From contig CAWETI010000003.1 of NCBI GenBank assembly GCA_963812015.1, positions 736,001 to 800,000 on the forward strand: a stretch of 64,000 nt of DNA. The letters are read 5' to 3'. The notes below the pieces were generated by a model. That model worked only from the letters and a program-made list of their open reading frames with translations. It was not told where the DNA came from and made no database searches. Made by a program: the position numbers and the translations under genes. The stretch is from an uncultured delta proteobacterium. Lineage in GTDB: Bacteria; Desulfobacterota; Desulfobaccia; Desulfobaccales; 0-14-0-80-60-11. Positions 2,638 to 59,126 of this stretch are shown here, piece by piece (within the stretch, counting starts at the first letter, position 1; each line of letters starts with the position of its first letter).

Positions 2638-3675
2638 CTACCAGAGGCTCATTTGGGGTTTAGCTTTCGGCGTGGGCTCAGGTATAAGCTTTTCGGCAAT
2701 GACTTGGGCAATCAAAGGAGCGTTGCCACCGGCCCGATTATTGATGATCAAATTTACCGACACACCTTTCTCAATGGCTGTCTGGATAATTTCAACCGTC
2801 TCCAGGACCATCTCCGGGTGCAGCATACCTGCCACAAGCTTGCTAAAAGGATGCGCTTTCGCATAAGCTTCTTCGTACCGCATGTTTAAAGGCGTCATGA
2901 TCCGGATCACACATTCCTTCCCTGCATTGAAAAATCTGCCGTCAGCTTTGGCCAACTGTTTTCTCAAGGGAGGCAGCCAGGTCCAGTGAGATAAAACTTG
3001 CCCGATGCCGTGTTTTGCTAAGACTTCAAAAACTTGATCCCTTAGATAGAGTTCGGTTCTCAATTCCACATGATATCGGGGATCCGTGGGGATCTGGCTG
3101 AAAAATCTGTCCAAGGCCTGGGCCATCTCGTTCACAGGAGCCCGATCTTCCTTGCGCTGATATTCCTGTTCAAAGATGAAGCCAGAGAGGATGGGCCCAA
3201 GCAGATTGACGGCCGGTTCATAGAATTGCTTGGTGAAAATTCCAGGGTTTAGGTAGGCTTCGTTCTTGATGTGCAGATCACTTTGCCTGATCTTTTGCGC
3301 CGTAATCATCTGTGGCACTTTGAGAAGGATGGGGTCGTCCTCTTTTAAGTGCCGGGCATAACTCTGCAACACCTGATAGTTCTGGGTGGGCTGGTAATTA
3401 TGGTCCAAGAGCGGTCGGTAGAAAGTGAAATCGATTTCCAGGACTGGGAAATGTTCGAAATACTCTTCCACGCTGTCGACGGGAAGCACTTCTTCGATGA
3501 ATGGTTTTCCGCCTATGATTTTAGTGCGTTTGGTTATTCGCCCAGCATAGCGGTCCTGGGAATAAATTTGTCCGATCCAGCCGGCATACCGATCACTGGC
3601 AGTCCCGACGAAGACCTTGGGATGCATGGCGCGGAAATGGAAGGTTTTCAGATTGCATTCCTGGTCAATGGGCAT
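2638..3675 (-). CDS. DUF72 family protein
   Basis: VGTAS..Y.GW.G..Y, F..LEIDFTFY, LKVPQ.IT, VELR and INNRAGGNAP motifs. Confidence 0.85.
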   Translation of the reverse strand: MPIDQECNLKTFHFRAMHPKVFVGTASDRYAGWIGQIYSQDRYAGRITKRTKIIGGKPFIEEVLPVDSVEEYFEHFPVLEIDFTFYRPLLDHNYQPTQNYQVLQSYARHLKEDDPILLKVPQMITAQKIRQSDLHIKNEAYLNPGIFTKQFYEPAVNLLGPILSGFIFEQEYQRKEDRAPVNEMAQALDRFFSQIPTDPRYHVELRTELYLRDQVFEVLAKHGIGQVLSHWTWLPPLRKQLAKADGRFFNAGKECVIRIMTPLNMRYEEAYAKAHPFSKLVAGMLHPEMVLETVEIIQTAIEKGVSVNLIINNRAGGNAPLIAQVIAEKLIPEPTPKAKPQMSLW

Positions 3676-4024
3676 GGTTCCAGTTTAATGGAAAAAGGGA
3701 CATAGCCCAACTGCATAGTGGAGGTTAATGGAGAGGTTCCGGTATGCATATTACCATTGCTAAATGGCCCTGAAACGCCCCCAGAAGGCTTGAAGAGCAC
3801 CAACCCTTACTTCTGGCCATTAGTCGGTTGGCTTGCGTTGAAATTTGGGCCGAAAAAAGGACCGTACGTTGCTGTTTTTGACCATCGCCGCCATCGACCT
3901 GAACGCTTCCTATGAGGCTTCCTTTGTTTAGAGCCACTACCCTGCTATTAAGCATGGCCTGCATCTAATGCCTTAAAGCGGGCCAGCCTTAAGTCTGGAA
4001 CCCTGACCGTATCCCTCGTTGCGA

Positions 4025-5872
4025 GTCGAGTAGCGCAGGGGAATCTCACCCCCACGCCCTCACAGATCCGGACGTGAACCTCTCAGCTCATCCGGCTCCT
4101 CTTATCCAGCCGCCGGCCGCACTCCCAGTCGCCAGTGAGCGAATAAATTCGACTCACGCCGGGCAATGCGTCCTAACCAATGGGTTGACTGACGCTGATG
4201 GCCACGCAGCTTCTTAAACTTACGCATGGCCCAACGGGTCAGAGCGCGATTCAGTTGGCGCAAAATCGGGTAAAGTGCAGACTTGTAGTAGCTGCCATAG
4301 TAGTTAATCTAGCCCCGAAGGACTGGATTGAACATCCGGGACAAGTCGTCGAGAGCCTTATCGCTCCTCAGGTGGAGTCGCCAACTACGCATGGTGCGGC
4401 GCATCGTCTTTGCGGCTTTATCGCTCACTGCCGGGCTGAAGCTGATGAAGAACTTGCCCCAGCGATTCTTCGATCTCCGGGGACGAAACGTGAATCCCAG
4501 AAAATCAAACTTCTCGTTGAGGTAGTGGCCTCTCCGATCATCATCCTTGCAATAGACTATCTTGGTCTTTTCAGGATGAAGCTCCAGTTTGCATTGAGCC
4601 AGCCTTCCGGCAATCGCCTTCCTCAATGCCCCAGCTTCCGATTCTGTCTGGCAGTGGACCACCACATCATCGGCATATCTCGCAAAAGGATTCTGTGGAT
4701 AAGTCTTCCGCATCCATTCATCAAAAGCATAGCGCAGGAACAGGTTGGCGAGCAGAGGGCTGATCACCCCGCCTTGCGGCGTGCCCTTCTGCCGGAGCAC
4801 TAAAGTCCCTTCAGCAAGTTGGGCTGGGGCGGTAAGCCACCTTTCGATGTAGAGCAGCATCCATGAACAGTCGGTGTGCTTACGCACCGCCCGCATGAGA
4901 AGGTCATGGTCCAGGTTGTCAAAGAATCCCTTGATATCCAAATCGATCACCCAGTCGTAGCGCCAGCACCTTTTCCGGGTTACTCCAACGGCTTCAATCG
5001 CCGACTTCCCATGTCGATATCCATAGGAGTCTGGATGAAAGCATGGCTCCACCAACGGTTCCAGGTAAATCTTGACTACCATCTGGGCAATCCGATCTAA
5101 TACCGTCGGGATTCCCAAACTTCTCTGGCCGCCACCGGCCTTGGGTATGGTTACCGTACGCACTGGTGGCGGGAAATAGCTCCCCGAGGACATGAGATTC
5201 CAGACCTTGTAAAGGTTGTTCTTCAACCCCTTCTCAAAATCTGCAATCGACTCCGTGTCTACTCCGGCCGCTCCCTGGTTTGCTTTTACCCTTTGAAACG
5301 CCTTCCAGACCACCCATTTTGAAATCTCAAACGGCTTTGCTTTATTCACCGGTTCCTCCCATTTCTGGTTGACCAAGCCATAAAGCTGAATGAGACAACC
5401 CCTTCACTCCATCCCCATTACGGGACTTCTTCGCTACTACGGGTTGTTCCGCCCCTGTGCCCCGCCTCGGTACTCTCACTCTCATGGGTCCTCCACTTGA
5501 GTTTCTCCCTTCACATCGGAGCGACAGGTTCCCACGTTCCACGCAAGAGCCTGAGTCAAGATCATGCCACCTTCATGCCGGACACCACCCAAGCAATAAG
5601 CAGGCTCCCCTTGGGCTTATACTGGGACCACCATACCCCCCAGTTTTGACGTCGTCCTTATGATTTCGACACGTCATCAGTGGTTCGCTTGCGCTCATCT
5701 TCTTGACCCATACCTGACGCAGTTGCTCTGCGCCTTTTCCTTAACGCTCACCACCCTGACTCTTAACCAGCGCAGCTTAAGGCGGTTTGGAACCTGTCCC
5801 TGCAGACCGATTCCGAGGGGCCTACCCTCATCTCTTGCGCAACACCGCACTCAGCGTGCGTTCGTGGCGCAC
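4025..5872 (-). mobile_element. group II intron, RmInt1-like (bacterial class D, IIB)
   Basis: 5' GTGCG at 5872; domain V GAGCCGGATGAGCTGAGAGGTTCACGTCCGGATC and domain VI ending ...CTACTCGAC at 4025; EBS1 (5629-5635) and EBS2 (~5659-5664) complementary to the 5' exon. Confidence 0.92.
4102..5349 (-). pseudogene. ltrA: intron-encoded reverse transcriptase/maturase with premature amber codon
   Basis: RT motifs GAAGVD, LGIPTV.DRIAQ, DLDIKGFFD, GTPQGGVISP, RYADD; TAG at 4309-4311 where RGW(INYYG) is expected; frame continues INYYGSYYKSAL...FAHWRLG to TAA at 4102; no endonuclease domain. Confidence 0.85.
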
Positions 5873-5932
5873 TATGGCGATCATATCTTCATCTCTCTGG
5901 AATTTTTGAGAAGCTTTGCTAGTGGCAAGCTA
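5873..5932 (+). repeat. tripartite site S2 (core + right arm), interrupted by the intron
   Basis: Joining 4024 to 5873 gives GATATG-GCGAT-CATATCT; TGGCAAGCTA 41 bp after CATATCT. Confidence 0.8.
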
Positions 5933-6074
5933 GTGGCCTCTTCCTAAATACTTCTTAGAGAATGCCCTTTGGAAAAAATTATGTGCAAATTTACAGAGTA
6001 TATGGAGAATCTTAATCTTAAGAAAAGCTTTAAGAATAATTACCCTATATATTGAACTGTAAAGGAGAAACACC

Positions 6075-6608
6075 ATGAACCGGTCTATTGGGAAAGTGGC
6101 GATGGTTCTGCTGGTGGTTGCTGTTCTTTCGGGTGGGATGCTGTCCGGAGCTTCGGGTGTCTGGGCCAAGGAGAAGCCCGGCACTTTGGCGAAGCAGGTC
6201 CAGGGAAGCTGGACCCTGGTCTCCATATACGTCGAGCAGGACGGCAAGAAGATCGAGCCCTTCGGTTCACAACCGAGGGGTTTGATAACCCTGACTCCAG
6301 ACGGCCGTTTCTCGTATATCATGTTGAAGGCAAGCCTTCCGAAGATTGCTGCCGACAACCGCCTGAAGGGTACCGCCGAGGAGAATCAGGCTATTGTCCA
6401 GGGATCTTTAGCCGCCTACGGCACTTATAAGGTGGTGAATGAAAAAGAACATGCCGTGCAGGTGCACATAGAGGGGAGCACCTTCCCCAACTGGGATGGT
6501 CAAGATCAGAAACGGACTTGGACCGTCAAAGGAGACGAGCTGACTATCACCAACCCTTATGCGTCAGTGGGTGGGATTGCCTACCTCGTCTGGAAACGGG
6601 CCAAGTAG
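6075..6608 (+). CDS. exported lipocalin-like domain protein
   Basis: Signal peptide, GSWTLVS, G.I..T.DGRFS, AAYGTY, PNWDG..Q.R motifs; AAGGAG SD. Confidence 0.8.
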   Translation: MNRSIGKVAMVLLVVAVLSGGMLSGASGVWAKEKPGTLAKQVQGSWTLVSIYVEQDGKKIEPFGSQPRGLITLTPDGRFSYIMLKASLPKIAADNRLKGTAEENQAIVQGSLAAYGTYKVVNEKEHAVQVHIEGSTFPNWDGQDQKRTWTVKGDELTITNPYASVGGIAYLVWKRAK

Positions 6609-6667: not shown

Positions 6668-6774
6668 TTACTGCTATTTATGTGCCCATCAAGGAGACTT
6701 AGAAGGTTTTCGCTATACAGATCATATCTTCAACTATTAAGCATTTCGGAGAATGGGCTGATAGTGGCAAGTTA
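6668..6774 (+). repeat. tripartite site S3 (complete)
   Basis: CTGCTA 6671, CATATCT 6723, TGGCAAGTTA 6765 (spacings 52/42). Confidence 0.8.
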
Positions 6775-7024
6775 TGCGGCACCAATTCCATCGCTCAAAG
6801 CCGGATAAGACGAGCAGTTCATGCCTCATTCTGGGAAGGCGCAGGGGGTCATCCTCGCACCTAAGATGAAACCAAAATCCCAAGGCGCGGTGCACCATAA
6901 TTTATCGATTACAGCTTGACTAAGCAAAGACAATAATTACTTTTCGGGAGAACCACTTTAAACCACAAAGCGGAGAGCACTATATCCATAGCAGCACAGC
7001 GCATAAGATCAGATAACGAAATGA

Positions 7025-9244
<2,220 letters not shown>

Positions 9245-19257: not shown

Positions 19258-19321
19258 AGATATGAAGATCATATCTGCAATTTCTCCGACGCATTCGATA
19301 ATTGCTGGTCCTGGCAAGTTA
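19258..19321 (+). repeat. tripartite site S5 (core + right arm)
   Basis: Perfect AGATATG-AAGAT-CATATCT; GATAAT at +27, TGGCAAGTTA at +42; right arm nearly identical to S6. Confidence 0.85.
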
Positions 19322-19592
19322 TCAACTGTTTCCATTTTTAATTCCCGCCTGAAAAAAAAAATGGCCATCGCCGATCCTGTCTGAAGCGCACCTTTGACTA
19401 AGGAAATGTCAAGCAGAAAAGGACCGCGGCCGTTCCCGTAACGCTAGGCAATCGCTCTAAGGGAAATTTCTGTAGAACTTTATCAATTTAAACCCACCTG
19501 GTATATCCTTAGCGAATGGCCGGACCCCGTTGCCACACCTTTCGAGGTGCTTATATTAATAGAAATTGGATTAGTTCAACAAGCGGAGTGGG

Positions 19593-20351: not shown

Positions 20352-20411
20352 AATTCTAAAAGGCTCAATAAGTTAAAAGGAACGGTATTGAGGTACTGAA
20401 GAAGCTCAAGG

Positions 20412-20518
20412 CATCTGCTATGATCCAAAAATTATCACGAAGCCCAAAACCTCACTTATCCAGATCATATCTGCAATTTCCCCGACGCATTCGATAATTG
20501 CTGCTCCCTGGCAAGCTA
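20412..20518 (+). repeat. tripartite site S6 (complete)
   Basis: CTGCTA 20415, ATTATC, CAGATCATATCTG (CATATCT 20466), GATAAT 20493, TGGCAAGCTA 20509. Confidence 0.9.
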
Positions 20519-20575
20519 TATTGAATTCCAATATCTAATAAATCTTTTGGGTCCTCCTTAGCGGATCCTGCCTGC

Positions 20576-21224: not shown

Positions 21225-21287
21225 TATATCTACATCATATCTGGAATTTTTCCCACACAAGCGATAATTCCCGATGCTGGCAAGTTA
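21225..21287 (+). repeat. tripartite site S7 (core + right arm)
   Basis: TATATCTACATCATATCTGGAATTTTT; GATAAT at +27, TGGCAAGTTA at +42. Confidence 0.85.
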
Positions 21288-21321
21288 TCAAAAGATAGGT
21301 GATTTTCTTTCACCAGATTTA

Positions 21322-26994: not shown

Positions 26995-27135
26995 TATCAG
27001 CTCGGATCCTCCGGACTGTAGTCCAGTGGCGCAAGAGGCCCACACCAAACCCGGGAGTTGGTTCCTGATGTAATTCTTATGGTTATACACCGGAGCAGGT
27101 CATTGGGAAGCTGCGGGAAGCCGAAGTGGCGTTAT
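26995..27135 (+). mobile_element. IS3-family left-end fragment
   Basis: YTPEQVIGKLREAEVAL (27084-27134), typical IS3-family OrfA N-terminus, truncated at site S8. Confidence 0.65.
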
Positions 27136-27191
27136 CTGCTATGATCCGACACTTATCACGGAGCCAAAAAGCTCGCATATAGAACATATCT
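27133..27191 (+). repeat. tripartite site S8 (left arm + core)
   Basis: CTGCTATGATCCGACACTTATCAC identical to S9; CATATAGAACATATCT core. Confidence 0.85.
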
Positions 27192-27273
27192 TTAAATTTT
27201 CGCCACCCCCCCAAGCCCAGAGTCGCCCATTAATTTCGTCCTTGCACTCGTCAGCTTATGTCTCCCTGCCCCG

Positions 27274-27819
27274 TCACTTCGGGTTCGCCGCCAGGTAGTC
27301 GTTGATGAACTGGTCGACTTGGTCCCCCACTAAATTTCGGATTTGAGTTATGTTGGTTATCTTGCATGTTCCTGCGTATCCCGTCGTATGCCATACCACA
27401 CCAGGGATTTTAAAACCACTTTCGATGGCAACTTTCTTCTTTAATTGCACCTTGATTGAATACGCACAGAAAGTAGAGCCAGGCTTGGTGACGGCATTTA
27501 CGTTCACATAAAGGTACGGCATCCCCGGCGTCCCTTGGCTTTCCTTCTCCGTGAGAACCCTGGCTCCGGCCTTGCGTAGTCTCATCTCGACGTCCGTCTG
27601 TATCTGGTCTCTGATCAAGCCCAAGCGCTCGATTTCTGGCTTAAGGTTCTCGACCAAAACGTGCACCCCTTTCAGCCCGACAAGAGCCTTTTGCTCATCA
27701 GTAAGGGCATGAGAGACAGCCGGAAGCAGCAAAAGTACCACCACCAGGGCCATTACCCTCTTTTCCAGGCTCAGGATGCATTTTTTGTCGGTACTTATGG
27801 TAGAATTTTGTTCAGCCAT
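27274..27819 (-). CDS. hypothetical exported protein fused to the conserved leader
   Basis: Start MAEQNST after GGAGG; hydrophobic signal-like segment; LKGVHVLVE...VEMRLRKAG...PYLYVNV...DQFINDYLAAN. Confidence 0.7.
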   Translation of the reverse strand: MAEQNSTISTDKKCILSLEKRVMALVVVLLLLPAVSHALTDEQKALVGLKGVHVLVENLKPEIERLGLIRDQIQTDVEMRLRKAGARVLTEKESQGTPGMPYLYVNVNAVTKPGSTFCAYSIKVQLKKKVAIESGFKIPGVVWHTTGYAGTCKITNITQIRNLVGDQVDQFINDYLAANPK

Positions 27820-27893
27820 GACATGAACCTCCCCGACAGGTTTGGTTGTGGTTAGGGCCGGTCCGGTGATGCCCATGCTCCAGGCCGGCCTGC

Positions 27894-28070
27894 TTATTTC
27901 CTGGTTCGCTTCAAATACTCTTCCACGTCTGCCCACCTGATACGCACGGCTCGCCCCAGCTTATGATGAGGCAATACACCTTCACGAACCCGCCGCCATA
28001 TAGTGTCTTTTGATAGGCCGAGCTTTTCGGCTATTTCCTTGACCGAAAAAAACTCTCGTTCTCCCGTCAT
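27894..28070 (-). CDS. xis: excisionase (HTH_17/AlpA-like)
   Basis: Manual translation MTGEREFFSVKEIAEKLGLSKDTIWRRVREGVLPHHKLGRAVRIRWADVEEYLKRTRK (58 aa, below the ORF-track cut-off). Confidence 0.88.
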   Translation of the reverse strand: MTGEREFFSVKEIAEKLGLSKDTIWRRVREGVLPHHKLGRAVRIRWADVEEYLKRTRK

Positions 28071-28444
28071 TCCATTACCCCCAAACCATTCGAGTGATTA
28101 TTTTAATTATAAAATACTTTGATATGCATGTAAGTGCAGCTGTATGCAATATTAGGGATAAAATATATAGGATTTTGCAAATTGCATCGGCTCTATCCTT
28201 TGCCCCGCCATGCCCAGGCTGCCCATTTATTGCCGCGACTGTTATCGCTGGCGGATGGCTATCCTACCCCTCATCGGATTGCTTAATGAAGGACTTTTTC
28301 CGGGTAGTCGATGGTCTTGTTCCAAACCGATATGGATGGATGATCTGCGCGCCAAAAATGATCCAAAGATTATGCTGAAGTAGTGTCACGAAGGGAGGCA
28401 AAGAGATCTGGCGTAGCTGATATGTGATGGCTATAAACATTTAC

Positions 28445-28548
28445 TAGCTGCTATGATCCGACACTTATCACAGGGTCCAAAACCTTCCATATTCAGACGA
28501 TATCTGGAATTTTTACCACTTAGATGATAAGAGATTAGAATGGAAGCT
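28445..28548 (+). repeat. tripartite site S9 (complete, right end 1-nt deletion)
   Basis: CTGCTA 28448, GATATCT 28499, GATAAG 28526, TGGAAGCT 28541 (spacings 51/42). Confidence 0.85.
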
Positions 28549-58839: not shown

Positions 58840-58901
58840 TCTATTCAGAGCATATCAATAATTTATTCAAGAAACCCGATAAGTTTTCTTTGTGGCAAGT
58901 T
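58840..58901 (+). repeat. tripartite site S11 (core + right arm)
   Basis: TATTCAGAGCATATC (CATATC 58851), GATAAG at +27, TGGCAAGTT at +42, same spacing as the island copies. Confidence 0.7.
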
Positions 58902-59126
58902 CTATAAACTTTTGTATCCCAAGTTTTCACTTTGGCAAACCATCTCTGGCTTGACTTGATTCCCACTCTAACTTAAAACTTGGTACGACTGCTGGGGGCA
59001 GGTCACCGGGGCTTCCAAATGAAGCGACGATAATTATCGGAATAATCTACATCACTACCAGATTTATGGTTCAATCGGAATGACAGCCAATGTGATAGAC
59101 AATTTTCCAACGGGCGATGAGCTGGT

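Follow-up and report, generated by a model that had tools for sequence, protein, structure and literature searches.

A putative class D group II intron of the RmInt1 type inserted in the palindromic core of an arm-core-arm repeat

Background

Bacterial group II introns of class D are known for living in repeated mobile DNA and for guide loops that have been retuned to different targets. In the account of PMC4615759, the class D introns RmInt1, RmInt2 and Sr.md.I1 reside in insertion sequence (IS) elements and differ in their guide loops. RmInt2 targets the inverted (terminal) repeat of ISRm17 and makes head-to-tail copies, and Sr.md.I1 targets the transposase of IS66 (PMC4615759). Here we describe an intron of apparently the same class in an uncultured delta proteobacterium (assembly GCA_963812015.1). 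It lies on contig CAWETI010000003.1 (here C3), within a stretch of 64,000 nt (positions 736,001 to 800,000 of the forward strand) which was analyzed as a whole and is referred to as the window, and it is inserted in the palindromic core of a repeat built of arm, core and arm. Given what is known of class D introns, such behaviour was to be expected; what is new is the target.

The reading that we propose, with a probability of about 0.85, is that a class D intron retrohomed into the core of this repeat, that it belongs to a young sub-lineage with guide loops retuned to the core, and that the copy in the window is probably immobile. This provides a clean and richly replicated case of one subclass that extends from YADD codons of reverse transcriptase (RT) genes to two sub-sites of a repeat, with exon-binding site (EBS) 1 tracking each change. 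Additionally, the introns are independent evidence for a conserved arm-core-arm repeat and help in working out its role. Mini-introns without an open reading frame (ORF) and a palindromic target that is used in both directions are unusual for bacteria.

The closest described system is RmInt1 (class D, IIB3), an intron of Sinorhizobium meliloti that homes to ISRm2011-2. It shares with the window intron the Rfam family RF01999, the lack of a DNA-binding/endonuclease (D/En) domain and the class D motif at the C-terminus of the intron-encoded protein (IEP). In both introns the target is part of repeated, probably mobile DNA and comprises intron-binding sites (IBS) at the same positions, namely IBS2 (from -13 on), IBS1 (-7 to -1) and IBS3 (+1), and the corresponding EBS1, EBS2 and EBS3 can be aligned. 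In contrast to RmInt1, the window intron has other EBS sequences, its target is a palindromic core and not an IS gene, its IEP has a nonsense codon, and serine replaces proline in the class D motif. RmInt2 and Sr.md.I1 resemble the window intron as class D introns in which divergence of EBS and IBS has led to different targets in repeated mobile DNA within a single group of hosts, and the head-to-tail copies of RmInt2 have a counterpart in head-to-tail junctions among the relatives of the window intron. They differ in that here two lineages use two sub-sites of one repeat, that the palindromic core is occupied in both orientations, and that the present case is known from sequence comparison alone.

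Group II introns are also found in arrays of recombination sites. Class C includes a lineage tied to integron attC sites, and these IIC-attC introns (e.g. S.ma.I2), as presented in PMC4424553, resemble the window intron in being tied to recombination-type repeats that separate cargo genes. However, class C introns read a DNA stem-loop and a short IBS1, whereas the window intron fits a 13-bp pairing of EBS1 and EBS2, and its repeat site is without a single-strand hairpin fold and is not an attC. In integrons and clusters of attC sites lacking integron integrases (CALINs) of halophiles, IIB introns of classes CL1 and E occur, mostly in truncated form (PMC7923331). These too are IIB-type introns inside recombination-site arrays; a lineage-wide site specificity with covarying EBS, as described below, is not mentioned in the abstract of PMC7923331. 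A literature search, which is no exhaustive proof, returned no description of the arm-core-arm repeat or of introns in it.

A further known group are the YADD-homing group II introns M.a.I5, UA.I3, P.l.I2 and B.th.I3. Most homologues of the window intron are of this YADD-homing kind, and the window intron differs from them by loops that appear to be retuned to the repeat core.

Insertion of the intron in the core of the repeat

The complete intron spans window 4025-5872 on the minus strand and is 1848 nt long (5' GUGCGCC ... CUACUCGAC 3'). On this strand the 5' exon terminates with ...GAAGATATGATCGCCATA at 5873, the intron starts with GTGCGCC at 5872 and ends with ...CTACTCGAC at 4025, and the 3' exon opens with TCGCAAC at 4024. 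With a slash for each junction, the order of exon, intron and exon is ...GAAGATATGATCGCCATA / GTGCGCCACGAACGCACG ... GCGCTACTCGAC / TCGCAACGAGGG, and the ligated exons implied by these boundaries read GATATGATCGCCATA / TCGCAAC. The intron-less plus strand is ...GTTGCGA / TATGGCGATCATATCTTC, or in its wider context ...CCCTCGTTGCGA / TATGGCGATCATATCTTCATC...

The first-pass annotation of this DNA had claimed a precise insertion in the core of a repeat, and this was confirmed. Removal of 4025-5872 restores the core palindrome GA / TATGGCGATCATATC, in which the arms GATATG and CATATC stand on either side of GCGAT. The empty paralogous site C3:730134, which lies beyond the window at a distance of about 11.7 kb, spans the junction without a gap at about 98% identity over a stretch from about 80 nt on the left to about 65 nt on the right. 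The same holds, at lower identity, for C2:464257, which is also empty. The intron boundaries are thus given by the sequence itself, the Rfam matches described below and the empty paralogue.

The two left bases (GA) of the split core are found at 4023-4024 of the plus strand, the second of them, 4024, being IBS3 (a minus-strand T). The remaining core (TATGGCGATCATATC) and the right arm as far as TGGCAAGCTA follow at 5873-5932 of the plus strand. An nhmmer profile of the repeat matched window 5872-5932 (C3:741872-741932) with its first base flush with the end of the intron, and a pattern match covered 5880-5929. To the left of the intron, 3756-4024 of the plus strand belongs to a larger repeated unit that bears the core, as identified by BLAST. 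When the intron-less site was compared with the genome by BLAST, C2:464011-464318, C3:730018-730200 and C2:457909-458053 were found.

Ribozyme domains and guide loops

The hallmarks of a group II intron are present. Besides GUGCG at 5872 and the intron end ...CUACUCGAC, a part of domain I (5712-5829, minus strand) matched Rfam RF01999 (group-II-D1D4-2) with 112.7 bits (gathering threshold 36), and domains V-VI (4025-4100, minus strand) matched RF00029 with 56.2 bits (gathering threshold 40), with the branch-point A located 7 nt before the 3' end. The RmInt1 copy of S. meliloti which served as reference (locus L120) matched RF01999 at 113.7 bits. A search of the whole genome for RF00029 detected the window copy alone; remnants of the domain were found by BLAST instead.

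Three guide elements were assigned on the minus strand. EBS2 (AUCAUA) occupies intron positions 209-214 (window 5659-5664), EBS1 (UAUGGUG) forms a hairpin loop at intron positions 238-244 (5629-5635), and the EBS3 candidate A300 (5573) faces the T at +1 of the 3' exon. Their partners in the 5' exon are IBS1 (5873-5879) and IBS2 (5880-5885), which together cover 5873-5885 of the minus strand. EBS1 pairs with CGCCAUA (exon -7 to -1) in 7/7 positions including one G-U, and EBS2 pairs with UAUGAU (exon -13 to -8) in 6/6 positions.

For RmInt1, IBS2 UUCAU, the linker C, IBS1 GAUGAGA and EBS3 at G329 are given in PMC3123198. The 5' exon of locus L120 ends with TTCATCGATGAGA, which is exactly this published IBS2-C-IBS1. 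In a MAFFT alignment the EBS2 (AUGAA, position 236), the EBS1 loop and G329 of RmInt1 aligned with AUCAUA, UAUGGUG and A300, respectively. Alignment A1 comprised 35 intron sequences, 32 of them with usable 5' exons; L008 was dropped from the exon test owing to an N in the exon and L047 and L071 owing to short flanks. EBS1 paired with the last seven exon bases of its own intron in 7/7 positions in 24 introns and in 6/7 in the other eight. Mean pairing was 6.75, compared to 4.18 (maximum 4.97) over 2000 shuffles of the exons among the introns, and at least a dozen different EBS1 sequences were included. The stem of the EBS1 hairpin was paired throughout (100%), with changes on both sides in 4/4 pairs. 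The EBS2 stem was paired to 84.5% without double changes, and one proposed pair was unsupported; being conserved, this stem is uninformative on covariation. The proposal of the first-pass annotation that 5629-5635 and 5659-5664 are EBS1 and EBS2 in domain I therefore holds, on the alignment to RmInt1 and on the EBS1-exon covariation in 32/32 introns.

A genome-wide scan for exons that end in ATA and pair with both loops in 13/13 positions (G-U allowed) yielded 15 sites. Five of these fall in repeat copies as defined by nhmmer, whose combined share of the genome is about 0.1%, and a sixth shares the core sequence. The match of the loops to the core is therefore not due to chance.

In domain V, the catalytic AGC triad has its G opposite an A instead of the usual U (window 4066-4070, GGAUC on the minus strand). 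This feature is common to the nearest relatives, namely L126, L130 and the intron ends in genome G010; RmInt1 retains the G-U.

The intron-encoded protein and the state of the window copy

The RT/maturase encoded by the intron (4105-5376, minus strand) has 423 codons including an in-frame stop. It matched the group II RT/maturase equivalog TIGR04416 with 397 bits (cut-off 300), and a Pfam search of the IEP returned RVT_1 and GIIM only, with no DNA-binding or endonuclease domain. The frame finishes 45 codons past the maturase domain. IEPs of the RmInt1 group have 419 aa and the class D C-terminal motif LX3AX3PXLF[V/A]HW, as stated in PMC4615759. The C-terminus found here, LGRIARRESNLFAHW, fits this motif save for S in place of P; the P is present in the relatives L125 and L126, which have LGRIARQEPNLFAHW. 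Identity to the IEP of RmInt1 (L120) was 59.5% over 96% of the length, compared to 32-44% for further RTs of plasmid-borne introns picked from lower in the ranking. The RT and maturase domains without further domains, the C-terminal motif, the identity to RmInt1 and the shared RF01999 support the assignment as a bacterial class D intron of the RmInt1 type, IIB-like and endonuclease-less, in agreement with the first-pass annotation.

The latter had recognized the intron as such, which stands, and had overlooked that its protein is broken. In comparison with the relatives, an in-frame TAG (4309-4311, minus strand) replaces the Trp of the maturase motif RGWxNYY and divides the GIIM domain in two. 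The motif reads RG(stop)INYYG in the window copy, RGWIAYYG in RmInt1 and GWINYYG in L125, L126 and L130. Since the TAG takes away most of the maturase domain and the genome encodes no close helper RT, the one other RT locus being 32% identical, the window copy is probably immobile. Inactivity at present would be the simplest reading, and according to PMC4424553 truncation or inactivity, in a setting of mobile DNA, is the rule for intron copies in bacteria.

It is improbable that the copy is still active, with the TAG being an assembly or sequencing error or being read through, so that splicing and movement would be possible. The stop is the only one in an otherwise intact frame of 423 codons with all motifs, and the ribozyme scores as high in Rfam as that of RmInt1. 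However, the genome holds a single full copy, and three empty sites with identical IBS2-IBS1-IBS3 (C3:730134, C2:464257 and C2:446846) have remained unused. Reading of the TAG as pyrrolysine was rejected, as no PylS above the cut-off was found in the genome (best match 25 bits, cut-off 178). Furthermore, the relative L126 carries stops as well, so decay is common in this intron group.

Relatives and their targets

With the IEP as query, 561 stretches of genome contigs were found to encode a relative. Of these, 79 loci with 60-77% protein identity were kept, and both intron ends could be placed in 65. These yielded 68 rows, with two alternative candidates for the 3' end in some. From metagenome contigs 80 loci were kept and the 5' junction was obtained in 59. 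A DNA search in the genomes of 40 relatives gave matches in 22, including 14/17 of the same genus. The protein tree contained 71 rows (62 different) after alternative 3'-end rows and ORFs below 330 aa had been left out, and RmInt1 served in it as outgroup only.

The commonest target, with 36/71 tree rows, are the YADD codons of other RT genes (...TAYGCNGAYGAYN /). Introns at this site have EBS1 GUCGUU and EBS2 GCGUA, and the YADD site is likely the ancestral target.

Insertions in the core or in the same core sequence recur. Besides the window copy they comprise the metagenome locus L126, at least two insertions in the sister genome G010 and a fragment at C3:724774. L126 is 93% identical to the window intron over all 1848 nt and lies in a homologue of the window site in the opposite orientation (...GATCATA / TCC...), between a 5' exon ending in ...GATAAGAAGATCATA / and a 3' exon TCCTCAACTATTTGGAATTTTTGAGAAG...TGGCAAG. 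Its EBS1 is UAUGGUU. In G010, intron ends with 96-97% identity to the window copy adjoin a left flank of the core ending in ...CATA / and two different sequences of right half-core plus arm. These exons match repeat copies of the window genome and end exactly at the predicted CATA point, window 58854, a site without an intron in this genome. At C3:724774 an intron 5' fragment of 108 nt (87% identical) is preceded by CGATATGGCGATCATA.

A second set of introns has the other sub-site. In 16 junctions, which fit the pattern G[GC][CG]A[AG]G[CAT]T[AG] / GTGCGCC, the intron stands immediately after the right arm of the repeat, TGGCAAGCTR (loci L032, L034, L038, L040, L042, L082-L086, L088, L091, L101, L115, L116 and L192). 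They derive from metagenome-assembled genomes (L032, L034, L038, L040 and L042), from genomes of the genus and from one metagenome contig; among genus genomes at least eight are represented (G003, G005, G007, G010, G014, G016, G037 and G038). The arm clade has a support of 99 in the Shimodaira-Hasegawa-like approximate likelihood ratio test (SH-aLRT). Within the genus EBS1 tracks the variants of the arm: GGCAAGATA occurs together with UAUCUUG and CTATCTA with UAGAUAG.

Four arm junctions carry ORF-less mini-introns of 648-665 nt, in which domains I-III are joined to V-VI. These follow the TGGCAAGCTR arm at loci L084 (1461-2108), L085, L086 and L087 in the genomes G005, G007, G037 and G013. At E<=1e-20 the window IEP as query found no relative in G005, G013 and G037, and in G007 and G035 only RTs of 39-42% identity. 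ORF-less introns are described in PMC4424553 as rare in bacteria and usually accompanied by a related IEP.

Taken together, a specialisation of the intron lineage on the repeat family is supported. The first-pass annotation had proposed a lineage that parasitises this family of sites, and had suggested that close homologues be surveyed for their exon junctions. The copies of 93-97% identity in cores (L126 and G010) and the clade at the TGGCAAGCTR arm bear this out; L125 in a YADD site and the position of the window copy outside the arm clade do not.

The recurrence of core insertions also bears on whether the window copy is a one-off ectopic insertion, in which a YADD-homing class D intron entered a core (TATGGCGATCATA / T) that merely resembles the YADD target (TATGCGGATGATT / T), with no adapted lineage behind it. 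The two sequences have 9/13 bases in common, YADD is the commonest target of the subclass, L125 (91% identical) occupies it, and L126 retains a YADD-like EBS2, GCAUA. However, EBS1 and EBS2 of the window intron are unlike GUCGUU and GCGUA and pair with its own exon in 13/13 positions, at least four further insertions are in cores or the same core sequence, and the copies of 93-97% identity lie in bona fide repeat copies. An accidental insertion is therefore very unlikely.

Remnants of domains V-VI were found at C3:825089-825148, C3:1009649-1009703, C2:792087-792157 and C2:1101033-1101078. All four stop at the exact 3' end of the intron, 20-47 nt downstream of right arms and in the orientation of the site, and the same layout is repeated in another genome (L038:3863-3947). 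The bases between right arm and remnant are unlike the intron 5' end. Head-to-tail junctions (...CTACTCGAC / GTGCGCC...) recur in the subclass at L068, L079, L130 (1784/1785), L167 and L204, and could reflect insertion in tandem or faulty assembly of multi-copy introns.

Proposed mechanism and orientation

By homology to RmInt1, the intron would have entered the core by retrohoming. The excised intron RNA with its bound RT/maturase would have inserted itself by reverse splicing into one strand of the DNA at the palindromic core, guided by the pairings EBS2-IBS2 (6 bp), EBS1-IBS1 (7 bp) and EBS3-IBS3 (A-T), and the inserted RNA would then have been copied to DNA. In a young sub-lineage the guide loops would have shifted from the widespread target at YADD codons to the repeat core, and a second clade in the genus would have been tuned to the TGGCAAGCTR arm. 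We infer the direction of this retargeting, from YADD to core; the likeness of the two targets in 9/13 bases may have eased the jump.

Because the core is palindromic, both strands offer ...CATA / TC, and insertions are found in both orientations. The loops of the window copy fit the reverse strand of its own core in 13/13 positions and the forward strand in 11/13 (EBS1 6/7 and EBS2 5/6, counted by hand). A preference for the lagging-strand template is reported for RmInt1-type introns in PMC4615759. The cumulative GC skew of C3 has its minimum near 0.18 Mb and its maximum near 1.42 Mb, and by this noisy profile intron copies in forward orientation agree with such a preference.

Several observations speak against our reading. 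The window copy has the rarer orientation: its nearest relatives in the core face the other way, and according to the noisy skew profile it lies on the strand that RmInt1-type introns disfavour. In the protein tree its IEP falls into a polytomy inside a clade of 43 rows (SH-aLRT 95) and groups with neither the arm clade nor any other core-targeting intron, so that common descent of the lineages that target the repeat is unsupported by the tree. L125, with 91% DNA identity, has YADD-type EBS loops in addition to its YADD site, an outcome of the sort that the first-pass annotation had named as refuting its proposal; as this site is unrelated to the repeat, the specialisation on the core is recent. 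The copies of 96-97% identity in G010 consist of intron ends at contig edges only, and a search for their EBS region recovered only a more distant copy of the arm lineage. The fragment at C3:724774 lies outside any recognisable repeat copy. Finally, the TAG could be a sequencing error. Position 4310 was C (TGG) in 20.4/20.4 depth units of run X2, 22.6/22.6 of X16 and 16.7/26.9 of X3, while 10.2/26.9 units of X3 retained T. The contigs of X2, X3 and X16, which come from other samples, are at least 90% alike, X15 is without coverage of 4310, and the contigs of all four runs reach the intron and not its flanks, which makes them uninformative on locus, splicing and habitat.

The arm-core-arm repeat

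The repeat consists of a variable left half-core, a conserved right half ATCATATC and an arm ending in TGGCAAGYTA, with a fixed spacing of 35-37 nt from core to right arm. A left arm, CTGCTATGATCCGACACTTATCAC, is present in many copies as well. Left and right arms bear the inverted 10-mers GACAnTTATC and GATAAnTGTC. In this genome nhmmer detected 67 matches to core plus right arm (five of which are the seeds) and 32 to the left arm, and the strict pattern ATCATATC-N35-60-TGGCAAG occurred 29 times. The strict pattern was present in 15/17 genomes of the same genus and was sparser beyond the family; the reversed pattern, used as control, was found in none of the 41 genomes searched. The introns are independent evidence that the repeat is old, conserved and much used throughout the genus.

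That core and arm are homing-site DNA which the introns have distributed, by exon co-conversion or as remnants, and not an independent functional site, is hardly credible: remnants of domains V-VI do lie downstream of four right arms and in the same layout in L038, but dozens of copies are without any intron sequence, the spacing is fixed and a left arm of its own exists, and the repeat occurs in the same-genus genomes G004 and G015, where the DNA search gave no intron match.

On contig C3, 30/37 copies of core plus arm are oriented with the leading strand as judged by the cumulative GC skew; as the copies are clustered, this count is no statistical test. Elements that rely on single-stranded DNA typically show such an orientation bias linked to replication. 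Folding of 11 full sites, with both strands taken, gave z values of about 0, and an attC-like single-strand hairpin was therefore rejected. The possibility that TGGCAAG plus GATAAT is a sigma-54 or sigma-70 promoter was dropped, as the spacing was unfit by eye, and a promoter scan of 3600-6400 returned one site compared to 1.7 expected. Matches to the tyrosine recombinase family PF00589 were found within 500 nt of the repeat site in 3/24 cases, in inconsistent orientation.

A wider proposal, which we regard as tentative and rather unlikely, is that two class D lineages and the ORF-less mini-introns have co-diversified with an undescribed family of arm-core-arm recombination sites. If true, this family would partition cargo genes across a genus of sediment Thermodesulfobacteriota, and the introns would be a class D counterpart of the association between IIC-attC introns and integrons. 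Intron remnants would then be part of many element ends, and the palindromic core, co-oriented with replication, would be a single-strand landing pad.

Repeat copies and genes elsewhere in the window

Further copies of the repeat are located at window 6713-6780, 19260-19325, 20411-20521, 21226-21291, 27132-27202, 28444-28514 and 58841-58906. The site at 58841 is empty, and its counterpart in G010 is occupied by an intron. The copies in the window separate unrelated small cargo genes, namely SRPBCC-like, PEMT-like, GNAT and dienelactone hydrolase genes and a gene for a secreted protein of 220 aa. The 220-aa ORF at 27274-27936, beside a left arm, was considered as a recombinase and rejected, as it matched no Pfam family and had no likeness to recombinases.

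A core-plus-right-arm site precedes both a lipocalin-like gene (6075-6608) and a gene of catalase-peroxidase length (7034-9244, 736 aa, named by its length), and each gene is oriented like its site. The 5' part of a DUF72 gene (3305-3715) is duplicated at C3:1491285-1491695 with 79% identity, beside another copy of the repeat, which suggests that this part of the gene and the repeat site were copied together.

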